A stretch of DNA of 64,000 nt from an uncultured Gammaproteobacteria bacterium (GCA_902563055.1 CACEWE010000002.1:19093-83092); one strand, 5' to 3'. Shown: positions 1-21,000, numbered from the stretch's first letter. Made by a program: the numbers.

Positions 1-3000
1 GCAATATTATGGCTAACGAGCAAAAAGAACCACAAATTCAAATTCACAAACTTTACATCAAAGACACCAGTTTTGAGGTGCCTGGGGGAAGCAAGTCTTT
101 TACCAAAGAATGGAAACCTGAGTTATCTGTTGAACTGAATCATCAAACAAAGGCCTTGGCAGAAGAAAATACTTTTGAAGTATGTCTTCGCGTTAAAGCT
201 ACGGTTAAAAATGGCGGAGAAGATGCCTTTATGGTTGAAGTACAACAGGCGGGTGTATTTGCGTTAACTGATTTTGACGATGAGAAAAAAGATCAAGTAC
301 TTGGTGCATTTTGTCCAGGTCTTTTATATCCTTATGCCCGTGAAGTGGTAAGCGATTTGGTTTCAAAAGGTGGGTTCCCGCAATTGGTGCTTTCGCCCGT
401 TAACTTTGATGCTATTTATGCTGAGTCTAAAGCTGTTCCGCAAGAAGAAAAGCACTAAGATTTAAGCGTAATTATGCGTTTTTGTGTAATAGGTGCCGGT
501 TCCTGGGGTACGGCCCTGGCTATGTACTTAGCCAGTGTAAACCATGAGGTCTTATTGTATACCCACGATCACTTGCATGCTAAAGCCATGATAGCCCAGG
601 GTGAAAACGCTGCGTATTTGCCAGGTATAGCTTTTCCTAAAAAGCTTCAAGTAGCCGAGCACCTTGATTTTAGCTGGAGTGATTATGTTATTTTGATCGC
701 CGTACCTAGTTGTGCTTTTGTGTCTTGCGTTACGCAGTACAAAGATAAAATTGCAAAGGCGCAAGGTTTGGTATGGGCAACAAAGGGTTTATTATCCGAT
801 GCTGTATTTATTTCTGATTTTTTACAAGAAACCTTCTCTAAAAATTATCCCTGTGCCTTATTAAGTGGTCCAAGTTTTGCCAAAGAGGTGGCGCGTGCTG
901 AGCCAACGCTTGTGGCGCTTGTGGGCGAGGATAGCGTTTTCTTAAATACCATGCAGCAGGCGTTTCATAGTGGGGTATTTCGTAGTTACGTATGTGATGA
1001 TTGGATTGGGGCGCAATTAGGTGGTGCAATTAAAAACATTTATGCTATTGCGGTGGGTATGGCTGATGGTTTAGGCTTGGGTGCTAATGCTCGCGCGGCG
1101 CTGGTTACAAGGGCCTTGGCTGAAATGCGCCGTTTGGCTGAGAAAATGGGCGCAAAGGATGCAACGTTAATGGGTTTAACGGGTATCGGTGATTTAATTC
1201 TCACTTGCTCGGATAATCAATCGCGTAATCGTCGTTTTGGCTTATATTTGGGGCAGGGTTTAAGTATACAGGCAGCGCTTGAGAAGGTAGAGCAGGTGGT
1301 AGAGGGCTATGAGGCAGTGAAGCAGGCGATAGTCTTATCTGAGCGTGCTGGTGTGTCGATGCCTATTTTAGACCAGGTTCATCAGGTTTTGTATCATGGT
1401 CAAGGGGTGAAAGTCGCCTTAGATGCGCTGATGACGCGCAGCGTGGGACAAGAATAATGCGACTGATTATTTTTCTGTTACTTTTGCTGTGTGCATATGG
1501 TTTTTTGATGTTGTATGCCTATGTGATGGTCGATCGTCATTTGTATTTTCCACCCCAGGCATCGTTTCAAAAGCCTGATAATATGATAGAGATTCAAGTA
1601 GCAAAAGATGCCCATATCACGGCCTTATATTTTACGAGACCAGGTGCGCAAAAAACCATTATATACAGTCATGGTAACGCAGAGGATTTACATTACTTGC
1701 AGCAATTAGCGCCGCATATTCTTTCTCAAGGCTTTAATGTTTTATTATATGATTATGAAGGGTATGGTCATAGTTCTGGGAAGCCGTCACAAAAAGCATT
1801 GTATAGAGATGCTTTAGCGGCTTACGATTATATCCACAAGGAAAAACAAGTGCCTCAAGAGGATATCATCGTGATGGGCCATTCTTTGGGTTCGGCTGCA
1901 GCTTTGTATATGGGAGTGCATAGAGCACCAGCGAAAGTGGTATTGCTGAGTCCTTTTTTAAGTGTTTTTCGGGTTGTGACGTATGTGCCGCTATTGCCAT
2001 TTGATTATTTTAATAATGCAAAACTGATTAAACAATTACATCGCCCTGTATCGATTATTCATGGCAGTGCTGACACTATTATCGCGCCCTATCATGCAAA
2101 GGTTTTATATCAATTGGCCAATGAGCCAAAATCTTTAGATATTATTGCAGGTGCCCATCATAATAATGTACTTGGCCAGTTGCGCGCCAGTTTTTGGAAG
2201 CAGCTACTGCAATAAATTGATTCGTTTATTATCTGCTCAGAAAATATAAATCAAACACAAAATATTACAATTTTAATATTTAATATTTACATATATTAAA
2301 AAGCTATTGAATTGTTTGTTTTTTCATGATAGCTTTGTTAGGTGATTTAGTATTTAAGCAGCCTAGGCAATGGCCGTGATTTCAAGTCTAACAGAAGGAG
2401 GTGTTTGATGTATGATGGAAGAGACACAGTTCCTGAGTGGGGCGCAGTAGCGCGTAACATTGATTTTGATAGCTATTCCTCTCAAAAGGATAAGCCAACA
2501 GATGCCTCAGCTCAAGAGGATGAGCCAACAGATGCCTCAGCTACTCCGCCAGGGCCTCTATTATCATCAGTCCCTCCAGCGACAACACAAGCCACAGCTA
2601 CCCCATCCAGGAGTTCAGTTGGTCAAGCTGATCAGCTGGTAGGAGGTGAAGGCGAAGGATTTCAAGGTGATGGTGAAAGTGCTTTCGCTACTCCGCCAAG
2701 GCGTTCAGATAATTCAAGAGTGTGTAGAACAGCAGGTCCTAGATTACAAAGGTCCACAAGCACTCAAGAAAGCAGAGGTCGCTCAAATTCAGAAGATTTA
2801 GAAATTGACTCAGAGAACCTTGTTTACTTTTTGTCTGTTATTGCGACTCAAACTAAAGATGAAATCTACTTTTTTTCACCTGGCTTAGGGAGTCTTGCCA
2901 CTAAATTTTTTTCTTTATTAGGTGATGAGTCTATAGAATCTTATGGAGAATATTTAACTACTATTCAAAACGATGTTGAACATCAACCTCTTTTTAATTT

Positions 3001-18000: not shown

Positions 18001-21000
18001 AGGGTGAACGAGCTCGCGATAAAGATAGGTCGCAATCAGAATCTCTTTCTCTTATAAGGGGACTGCGTGGTTCAATAGTACATCGAGAACAAATTTCAGG
18101 AGTATCTTCGCATCAAACGCCTGGTTGAGCATCACTATCAGCTCAAATAACTCCTGGTGGTCCTTAGTTTTATCAAGTGCAGTTAAACGTATCTAGCCAA
18201 CACCACCATAAATGCTTATACTAGCGATACTTTATGATCTTTTATTGTTTTTCTATAAGACAGTCATATGAATAGTAGTCCTGAAGCCAAGTGTTTAGCG
18301 AAGTCTCTTGCGGCCAAGCTTGGGCCTTTACAGGCATTGAGTATTATTTTGGCATGTTTGATTGCCTTTTTAACGGTGGTGCAGAGTTTTTTTTTAGCAC
18401 AGCTTGTTGCTAGTTGGTTTGGGATGCCGCTAGGGCGTTTTTCTTTTACGGATATCTTGATGCTGATTGCTGGCTGTGTTTTTTTAAGGGCGCTGTTGCA
18501 GGCATGTAAAGACTATTATGCGCCATTGGCCTATAAAAAAGTGGCCGATACCTTACGCGCCAAATTAAGGACCCACATGATGCAAATGGGTCCGGTGGGT
18601 TTAGAGGCTTATGCTGAGCATGCCAAGCTTGCCACGACTTGTCTTGATGGGGTAGCCCAGTTAAAAGATTATTACAGTTATTATTTGCCGCAAACCAAAA
18701 TCATGCTATGGGTTCCTATGGCGATTGCGATGGTGGTTTTTTTAATAAGTCCTTTGGTGGCGGTGGCGATGCTTGTTAGTTTTTTATTGATTCCGGTTTT
18801 TATGGCCTTGGTGGGCAAAAAGGCTAAGCGATTAAATCAGGAGAGTTTTACTTTTTTAAAGCGCAGCAGTGGGGCTTTTTATGATATTTTGCGTGGTTTA
18901 TTAACCTTAACTGTCTATAACCAAGCGCATTTACAGCAGCGGCGCATTGCACGGGTTTCAAGTGGATATAGAGTAAAGATTATGCAGGTTTTGCGGGTTG
19001 CTTTTTTATCTTCTGCGGTATTAGATTTTTTCTCAAGCATGTGTGTGGCGGCGGTGGCTATTTATGTTGGTTTGGCTTTGCATCATCAGTTTCAGGTGCA
19101 TGCTTGGTGGGGTTTATCTTTGGCGACGGGTTTATGGTTAATTTTATTAGCGGGTGAATTTTATCAGCCTTTGCGTGATTTTGCGCGATTTTATCATGCT
19201 AAGGCATCGGCGATGGCGGCGCTTGAGGATATTGCTGCCTTATTAAAGGCGCCTTTATGTGTTGAGCCTGTGGCTGATGAGGCTTTGGAGCTTGATGATG
19301 CAGCGGGGTATGATATTGCATTTAAGGATGTAACTTTTAGGTATGTGGGGCGTAAATCAGTGGTTTTTGAAGATCTTAATTTTACGATTAAGGCAAAGGA
19401 GACGGTAGCGATTGTTGGTGCTAGTGGCGCTGGTAAGACAAGCATTTTGCGTTTACTTTTAAAGCTTATTGCGCCATGTTCTGGGCACATTTATCTTCAG
19501 GATCTTCCATTAGATCAAATCAAGCAAAGCAGTTTATATGCTAGGGTGGCGTATTTAGAACAAAATCCTAAGATTCCGCCCGGAACGGTTATGGAGTATT
19601 TATCTTTAGCGCGCGAGGGGGTTTGTGCCAAAGATTGTATTGAGGTTTTAAATCAAGTGATGTTGGGTTCTTGGTTAAAAGCGCAGCCTTTGGGTTTAGA
19701 CACGGTGATTGGTGAGGGCGGCATGGGTTTATCTGGTGGTCAGGCGCAGCGTTTAGCATTAGCATTTTTATATTTAAAAAATCCGGCACTTATTTTACTT
19801 GATGAGCCAAGTGCTGGTCTTGATCTTGCCACTAAGGAGATATTGTTAGCATTTTTAAAGAATTATGCAAAGGATCGTACGGTGATTATGCTTTCTCATC
19901 ATACGCAGGAGATGGTTTTGGCCGATAGAATTCTTTTTCTTGGTCCAGATGGCAAGCTTCAAACCGGAACTTATCAGGCCTTACTTGAGCATGAAGCTTT
20001 TGTGGCTTGTTGTAAGGCCGATAAGGAGCGGATGGATGTTTAAACAGTATGCATGGCCATTGATACGACAATTATTGCAAGCGCACAAGGGCAAGGTTTT
20101 TTTATGTGCCTTGGTGATGTTATTGTTGGTCTTAGCTTCGGTAGGTTTAATGGCGGCGGCGGGTTTATACTTTGCATTTGGTGCTGGGGGTGCATTGGTT
20201 TTGGTCTCGATATTGGCTGCGGCATGGCTGATTCGTTTTTCTGCGATTTTAAAAATTGTAGCTGCGTATATTCAAAATATGCTCAGTCATCGCATCATTT
20301 TTGATGTACTTTGTGATTTACGTTTATGGTTTTACCGGCGTTTATTGCCGTTTTCGCCTTTAGAGTGGCGTTGGCTTGGTAGTGCCGATTTATTAAATCG
20401 GGTATTGGCTGACATTAATGCTTTAGATCATCTTTTTATTCGTTTTGTGATGCCGGTGGTGACGGCTTTGATGGCGTTTGTGGTGTTTGGTATATTGTGT
20501 GGTGTATTGCATTTTGCATATGGCTGGTTTGTGATCTTGCCTTTATTATTTTTAGTGGTGGTATTGTGTCGGATAAGCTGGCGCTATGCGTATGAGCTTT
20601 CGGCTCAAAGTGCGCGGCAGATGCAGCAGTTGCGCAAGGAATTTTTATCTTTATTAGATTATTTAATGGTATGGTTGATGTCGGGCACAAGCTACACCAA
20701 GGCCGATCAATTACAGGATCTAGAGGCACGTTTATGGGTTTTAGAGCGGCGTTTAGATTTATTACAGGCATTGGTGCAGGCTATGTTGTTGATGCTTATG
20801 GGTGGCGTTTTGCTGGGTTTATTATATGCACTTGAAGCTAGTTTGCTTGCTAAGGCATTAGTGCCGGCGGGGGCATTAGTTTTATTGATGGTTTATTTGG
20901 TATTGCCGCCTTTTTTATTACCTTTGCCGCTGGCGTTTTGTGGTTTAGGTAAGACCTTGGTTAGTGCAAAGCGGGTGATGGCGGTGGATGAGGGTTTGGT

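Follow-up and report, generated by a model that had tools for sequence, protein, structure and literature searches.

What are the five giant genes that lie between gpsA and cydDC in an uncultured gammaproteobacterium, and on what do their products act? The question is raised by a stretch of 64,000 nucleotides from an uncultured Gammaproteobacteria bacterium (GCA_902563055.1 CACEWE010000002.1:19093-83092); we call this whole stretch the window. Five co-oriented open reading frames (ORFs) on the + strand, named p1 to p5, open at 2405-6652, 6858-9464, 9637-11850, 12053-14080 and 14376-18128, and their coding sequence occupies 94% of positions 2405-18128. A first reading, made from the sequence only and referred to here as the sequence-only reading, took this array for a set of translocated effectors of the kind found in Legionellales and Coxiella. 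We put the probability that p1-p5 are lineage-specific secreted proteins acting on a eukaryotic host at about 0.5. They look like accessory host-interaction genes, as judged from their low GC content at third codon positions (GC3), the fast evolution of p1, replacement between strains, and the RING and SNARE genes nearby. The five genes are as follows (aa, amino acids).

2408..6652, + strand: p1, 1414 aa; the ORF opens at TTG 2405
6864..9464, + strand: p2, 866 aa; the ORF opens at GTG 6858
9637..11850, + strand: p3, 737 aa
12053..14080, + strand: p4, 675 aa
14376..18128, + strand: p5, 1250 aa

All five large + strand ORFs of the sequence-only reading were present where it had placed them. The sizes it gave for p3, p4 and p5 were exact, and those of p1 and p2 needed a slight correction of the start, to ATG 2408 and ATG 6864. 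A public protein collection holds the exact products of ATG 2408 (1414 aa) and ATG 6864 (866 aa), and the versions starting at TTG 2405 and GTG 6858 are absent from it. Stop codons occur locally at 0.075 per codon, which gives a chance of 1e-23 to 1e-48 for the open frames of p1-p5, and in the other frames across the array region the longest ORF is at most 98 aa. Because of these ORF statistics, a chance origin of the frames is excluded. The codon positions of p1-p5 show the normal order (GC1 > GC2 >= GC3), with GC3 at 0.26-0.32 against 0.31-0.42 (mostly at least 0.34) in the housekeeping genes measured. Shine-Dalgarno sequences were found exactly where they had been reported, 5-8 nt upstream of the ATG of p1 (GAAGGAGG at 2394), p3 (AAGGGGG at 9622) and p4 (AAGGAGG at 12041); ahead of p2 or p5 a clear one was not found. 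p1-p5 are real genes, as had been claimed, on the strength of the ORF statistics, the GC3 pattern and the recurrence of p1 and p3 fragments in metagenomes.

The proteins had been described as orphans, and indeed no family was detected for p1-p5 within the libraries and databases searched. No Pfam match was better than E = 0.012, all of them being far under the cutoffs. NCBIfam, which includes models of type IV secretion system (T4SS) effectors, and PHROGs gave no significant match, PADLOC gave none at E <= 0.1, so that by this measure the array is no defence island, and phmmer found no match at E <= 1 to p1-p5 among all PDB sequences. A PDB search with a profile built from p1 780-1200 and metagenome fragments was negative too. 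Searching with p1 residues 140-1339 by HMMER against all 1.84 billion representatives recovered only three short marine metagenome fragments, and a word-indexed search of 5.8 billion clusters with p5 recovered only p5 itself. For p2-p4, tblastn against 72,556 plasmids and scans of viral contigs were negative. The 90%-identity clusters of p1-p5 have 1 or 2 members each. By these comparisons, p1-p5 appear to define new families. We also considered p1-p5 as members of one common family; this was rejected by BLASTP and hhalign, which revealed no paralogy. The same two methods showed that p1-p5 are also unrelated to the window's other orphans.

Relatives in marine metagenomes revealed how p1 evolves. 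The part of p1 concerned is the following.

4745..5950, + strand: stretch of p1 to which Tara Oceans fragments (L011, L010 and L009) align, the basis for the ratio of non-synonymous to synonymous substitution rates (dN/dS, omega)

Two of these fragments are close to p1 in DNA (98% identity for L011 and 96% for L010), and the third, L009, is 46% identical in amino acids. p3 recurs as well, in a GOS fragment 91% identical to residues 445-675 that includes 114 identical residues. Between p1 and the two close Tara strains there are 4 synonymous and 25 non-synonymous differences, compared with 44 synonymous and 21 non-synonymous in gpsA, hydrolase, cydD and cydC together (Fisher P = 1.3e-6). Omega of p1 is about 1-2 between close strains and 0.5 against the 46%-identical fragment L009, at a dS of about 0.9. 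At long range p1 is thus under purifying selection, and its substitution excess between close strains fits diversifying or relaxed selection.

Furthermore, the array differs between strains. Across gpsA and the hydrolase gene and into the spacer upstream of p1 (to ~2335), Tara contig L004 matches the window at 96.7% identity. From window position 2336 it is non-homologous (L004 1259-1530) and carries the start of another S/R-rich gene, MFSSDSSSTSPANRRSSLLASTQSLSESRPPTRRSF... (MFSSDSSSTSPANRRSSLL...). Therefore, the array has been replaced between strains at its 5' end at least. At the other end, the p5/cydD junction is retained in another Tara strain (L008). In that contig cydD has a net 61-nt deletion (L008 1478-1489 against window 19581-19653) and is called as two ORFs, which could be pseudogenisation or an assembly error. 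On the ENA contig L011, p1 is homologous from Met-784 and is preceded by an unrelated AT-rich spacer plus a pilT/pilU-family gene, 33% GC (L011 1-707; p1 match 4745-5222). From this junction, the C-terminal half of p1 may be a separable module; the coverage of L011 is 3x, and the contig may be chimeric. The gene beside the p1 fragment was also considered as dotB, and this was rejected, since the PilT/PilU family scores 151 bits and the DotB model 42 bits.

These data allow us to ask whether the genes are simply decaying. On this account p1-p5 were acquired or arose de novo, are under relaxed constraint, have no function now and are drifting to loss in a host-associated genome that is being reduced. 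The p1 omega of about 1-2 between close strains is what it would predict, the genes are AT-rich with large spacers, and the apparently split cydD of a sister strain (L008) suggests ongoing gene decay in the population. Nevertheless, five frames have stayed open across 2-4 kb at 0.075 stops per codon, p1 has an omega of 0.5 against its 46%-identical homologue at a dS of about 0.9, a stretch of 114 residues in p3 is identical in the GOS fragment, and p1, p3 and p4 keep good Shine-Dalgarno sequences. We therefore consider decay quite unlikely.

What kind of proteins do these genes encode? p1-p5 are predicted to be soluble and to have no Sec route, because hydrophobic segments (signal peptide or membrane helix) are present in none of them. 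Motif scans of p1-p5 found no HExxH, Walker A, Fic, HRD or CaaX motif, and no NTPase, nuclease or protease motif. The absence of HExxH, Fic, HRD and transmembrane hairpins, noted earlier by eye, was thus borne out by the motif and hydrophobicity scans. The proteins do not resemble surface adhesins, RTX proteins or autotransporters either, since they have no hydrophobic N-terminus, the p3 and p4 models are helical, and Pfam reports no such domains. The helical look that had been ascribed to the proteins is predicted for p3 and p4 from single-sequence AlphaFold2 models of low predicted local distance difference test scores (pLDDT 35.5 for p3 and 44.3 for p4). In these models p3 is predicted to be helical at residues 1-445 and 504-581, with no predicted secondary structure at 582-737, and p4 is predicted to be all-helical, with several helices of 40-55 aa, and has no predicted secondary structure at 573-675. 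Private internal repeats had been claimed as well; they were found in p1, p2 and p5, and none was detected in p3 or p4. The longest is in p1.

3338..4198, + strand: internal duplication of p1, residues 312-428 / 483-598

The two copies (residues 312-428 against 483-598) are 36% identical over ~110 aa. p1 also has a 30-nt (10-aa) tandem repeat at 2481-2540, p5 has a 96-nt (32-aa) internal repeat (14690-14785 / 14855-14950), and p2 has a small repeat in its tail at 9310/9361.

Each of p1-p5 has a terminal S/P/R-rich tail of ~50-140 aa. The tails contain 15.8% S, 9.1% P and 8.6% R, against 8.3%, 2.8% and 3.9% in the bodies. Disordered S/P/R tails, with that of p1 at the N-terminus, belonged to the sequence-only reading; their composition was confirmed here, and the tails of p3 and p4 are unstructured in the models.

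2408..2824, + strand: N-terminal tail of p1, ~140 aa, S/P/T/R-rich, of low hydrophobicity, with the motifs RSTS and RSNS

The C-termini of p2-p5 are S/P/R-rich and of low hydrophobicity, and their net charge varies between tails. The tail of p2 is short and S/P-rich (~50-60 aa), that of p4 (residues 573-675) is S/P/R/K-rich, and that of p5 (~115 aa) carries RSPS, RSYS and RSQS; p1 ends in KEIIERDIVLEDCSA. In the tails GC1 and GC2 increase and GC3 remains at 0.20-0.27, so the tails are translated in frame. Tails arising by spurious read-through were considered and rejected, since the in-frame GC3 periodicity is maintained.

The tails are also enriched in short motifs. In a test devised after the sequences had been seen, for which reason the enrichment is a lead rather than a result, RSxS occurred 7 times in the tails against 1.7 expected when each tail was shuffled (P about 0.002), and [ST]P occurred 21 times against 11 expected (P < 0.0005). 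With whole-protein shuffles, RSxS occurred 10 times in all orphan proteins of the window against 2.4 expected, and once in the window's housekeeping proteins against 1.4 expected. RSxS and S/T-P resemble basophilic and proline-directed eukaryotic kinase sites, and also the core of the 14-3-3 mode-1 motif. Since p1-p5 and the alternative gene of sister strain L004 all have such tails, and since RSxS and S/T-P are enriched in them, the tails may be a module common to the exported proteins of this lineage, either as a new translocation signal or as a docking or phosphorylation handle for host kinases or 14-3-3-type proteins. This idea is speculative, and we hold it to be rather improbable. If it were true, the shared tail module would represent a previously unrecognised effector class in marine-protist-associated bacteria.

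p1-p5 might instead be lineage-specific proteins that are not exported, serving as cytoplasmic scaffolds, in the nucleoid or the cell's architecture, or in regulation, and located near host-interaction genes by chance. p1-p5 have no recognised secretion signal and the window has no secretion system, as this would imply, and the long helices predicted in the p3 and p4 models would also suit structural roles. We regard this explanation as unlikely, since a non-synonymous excess and strain-level replacement are unusual for core cell-biology proteins and S/P/R tails with RSxS and S/T-P are atypical of bacterial cytoplasmic proteins. The low GC3 and the absence of p1 homologues even in related lineages argue against it as well.

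Outside the array but within 10 kb of it lie two genes of eukaryote type, for a RING finger and a syntaxin-like SNARE. The RING claim proved correct: the ORF at 21790-22104 (-), 104 aa, matches zf-UDP with 29.7 bits, above the cutoff, and zf-C3HC4_3 with E = 4e-6. This ORF is located within a 1-kb AT-rich gap beyond cydC. The SNARE claim was supported marginally. The ORF at 27518-28615 (+), 365 aa, has a syntaxin-type Q-SNARE motif at residues ~147-220, and syntaxins make up 18 of its 21 best matches among PDB sequences, with 2XHE chain B, which we take to be syntaxin 1 of the choanoflagellate Monosiga, at the top (E = 0.0019); Pfam SNARE did not report this ORF. The 1605-aa gene before it runs into this ORF, whose true start is probably later. 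The ankyrin repeat (ANK) genes that had been proposed, a pair at 47566 and 48663, did not hold up, being below threshold (E = 0.035-0.07).

The neighbouring RING and SNARE domains could be read in another way, namely that the array was captured from a eukaryotic host or a giant virus, which would account for its eukaryote-like disordered tails with kinase motifs. Tail composition, RSxS and S/T-P resemble eukaryotic regulatory regions, as such an origin would lead one to expect. It is, however, hardly credible to us: no relative from eukaryotes or viruses emerged when p1 was run through the full HMMER scan, the viral-contig scans of p2-p4 were negative, and the genes lack introns and carry Shine-Dalgarno sequences of bacterial type.

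The RING and SNARE genes also matter for the question of whether the array is a conflict island against phages or bacteria, composed of novel defence proteins, polymorphic toxins or cargo of a type VI secretion system. They point to a eukaryotic target instead. Large and variable novel proteins amid housekeeping genes, rapid evolution and strain-level replacement would all fit a conflict island. However, p1-p5 have no PADLOC or PHROGs matches, no NTPase, nuclease or protease motif and no Rhs, PAAR or RTX domains in Pfam, and no small immunity-like ORFs lie between the genes. This explanation is very unlikely.

Which organism carries the array? The window is a segment of a gammaproteobacterial chromosome, with rpoD-dnaG-yqeY, tsaD, gmk, spoT, rnr and thrS-infC-rplT-pheST. 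The best match of GpsA is 3K96, and the best matches of Gmk are E. coli-type kinases, which are better than 3TR0. RpoD of the window is a singleton at 90% identity. A scan of a genome collection with gpsA found distant matches only, in Phycisphaeraceae and a metagenome-assembled genome of Pyrinomonadaceae, the genome itself being absent from the species representatives scanned, and a scan of JGI metagenomes with the hydrolase found relatives only 26-33% identical. Numerous short marine contigs, from Tara, JGI and other sources, carry identical SecB and L20 proteins; the organism is both widespread in ocean plankton and rare there. The Legionellales/Coxiella type of the sequence-only reading is a putative affiliation.

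Secretion of p1-p5, the type of secretion system, action within the host and any role of the tails are inferred, and our proposal runs as follows. The bacterium is an uncultured marine gammaproteobacterium of low abundance, and p1-p5 are five genes restricted to its lineage, independent of and unrelated to one another. A dedicated secretion system would export their products into the cells of a eukaryotic (protist) host. Should the organism be one of the Legionellales sensu lato, a Dot/Icm-type type IVB secretion system (T4BSS) would be the most plausible exporter. Within the host, the protein bodies might act as scaffolds or binders, and the tails might carry the export signal, host-kinase or phospho-binding sites (RSxS, S/T-P), or both.

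Several observations weigh against a host-directed function. No known effector or eukaryote-like domain was found in p1-p5 with Pfam, NCBIfam and PDB sequences. No secretion-system genes, including dot/icm, were found among the ORFs of the 64-kb window, and gene order and the GpsA and Gmk matches appear to place the organism no further than in Gammaproteobacteria. The PmrA-type box TTAATN6TTAAT occurs 0 times in the window against 1.45 expected; this box, made of tandem TTAAT repeats, applies to a subset of Dot/Icm effectors. Scans for promoters and terminators did not outperform shuffles. The tails differ from the classical Dot/Icm signal of 20-35 aa, and that of p1 is N-terminal. The tail-motif test was designed post hoc. 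Both predicted models, of p3 and p4, are unusable and give no fold-level support. The omega of p1 near 1, based on 29 substitutions, also fits relaxed constraint. Finally, the orphan status of p2-p4 is drawn only from profile libraries, the PDB, plasmid tblastn, viral-contig scans and cluster sizes.

How does the array compare with known systems? Like Dot/Icm effector clusters of Legionella and Coxiella, it consists of large, AT-richer, spaced orphans between housekeeping genes. The likeness extends to fast evolution, strain variation, the absence of Sec signals, polar C-termini that look disordered and eukaryote-like domain proteins nearby, here RING and SNARE. Unlike those clusters, it has no PmrA box and no significant match to an NCBIfam T4SS effector model, and it is known from a 64-kb window without dot/icm genes and from an organism placed only in Gammaproteobacteria. 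Dot/Icm effectors have a short E-block-type signal, whereas the tails here are S/P/R-rich, 50-140 aa long and in one case N-terminal. Another comparison is offered by the tandem-repeat proteins of Ehrlichia, which are serine-rich effectors phosphorylated by the host. They share with p1-p5 disordered Ser-rich regions with candidate host kinase sites on novel proteins. However, they show no similarity in sequence to p1-p5, whose tails are terminal instead of forming tandem arrays, and phosphorylation of these tails is purely hypothetical.

A possible ecological parallel is found in marine relatives of Coxiella (UBA7916 / Candidatus Comchoanobacterales), which have 39-42% GC and live with choanoflagellates (Needham et al. 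2022, PMC9418006). In Comchoanobacterales a Dot/Icm-like T4SS is expressed, and eukaryote-like proteins are numerous (PMC9418006). The organism described here is likewise from uncultured low-abundance marine plankton, a habitat taken from Tara, GOS and JGI contigs, with about 39-42% GC and eukaryote-like proteins. In contrast, Comchoanobacterales genomes are strongly reduced and this genome retains ilvBN-like genes, and the Comchoanobacterales paper (PMC9418006) highlights ANK, LRR and Sel1 proteins, unlike p1-p5.

Among host-associated Gammaproteobacteria, arrays of putative effectors that are orphans and evolve fast are the norm. The finding leaves concepts unchanged, because orphan effector-like arrays are expected there. 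If p1-p5 are effectors, they would add five new families to what little is known of the means by which uncultured marine bacteria act on protist hosts, and p1-p5 and their tails would be concrete candidates for translocation and host-target experiments.

The spacers and flanks of the array were also as had been described. Upstream DNA of 170-300 bp, very AT-rich, had been claimed, and the intergenic spacers measured 172-295 bp with 26-32% GC.

2216..2407, + strand: spacer upstream of p1, 27% GC; Shine-Dalgarno GAAGGAGG at 2394
6653..6863, + strand: p1-p2 spacer, 26% GC
9465..9636, + strand: p2-p3 spacer, 31% GC; Shine-Dalgarno AAGGGGG at 9622
11851..12052, + strand: p3-p4 spacer, 30% GC; Shine-Dalgarno AAGGAGG at 12041
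14081..14375, + strand: p4-p5 spacer, 32% GC

Upstream of the array lie the genes of SecB, GpsA and an alpha/beta hydrolase. Downstream lies CydD (474 bits, cutoff 435), followed by a CydC-like protein whose match of 306 bits is under the cutoff of 329; the claimed flanks, gpsA/hydrolase and cydDC, are thus present, with the CydC-like match below its model cutoff. Rfam on the window found tRNAs only. As for an integrative island, the array has no integrase or transposase domain, no adjoining tRNA and no flanking repeats, and its lower GC is the sole feature that fits. Elsewhere in the window, a 2.4-kb segment with two paralogous orphans (47566-48366 and 48663-49592) that are 53% identical is flanked on both sides by a 97-bp direct repeat (47312-47408 / 49784-49881), which consists of the promoter and the first 35 nt of tRNA-Val(GAC). 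This segment at 47.4-49.8 kb looks like an insertion or duplication at a tRNA gene, and the main array has no such insertion signature.

Other orphans of the window include an 800-aa protein at 58583-60985 (+) without a family match, whose N-terminus is hydrophobic and might serve as a signal peptide or membrane anchor. A sixth giant orphan of 1605 aa at 22825-27642 (+) has no Pfam, NCBIfam, PADLOC or PHROGs match and contains an internal repeat (residues 333-408 against 398-484). It sits in another low-GC island, which ends at tRNA-Thr (28735). Just past this tRNA, at 28957-29736 (+), lies a clan AA (retropepsin-like) aspartic protease of the TIGR02281 family, whose N-terminal ~140 aa are of low complexity.

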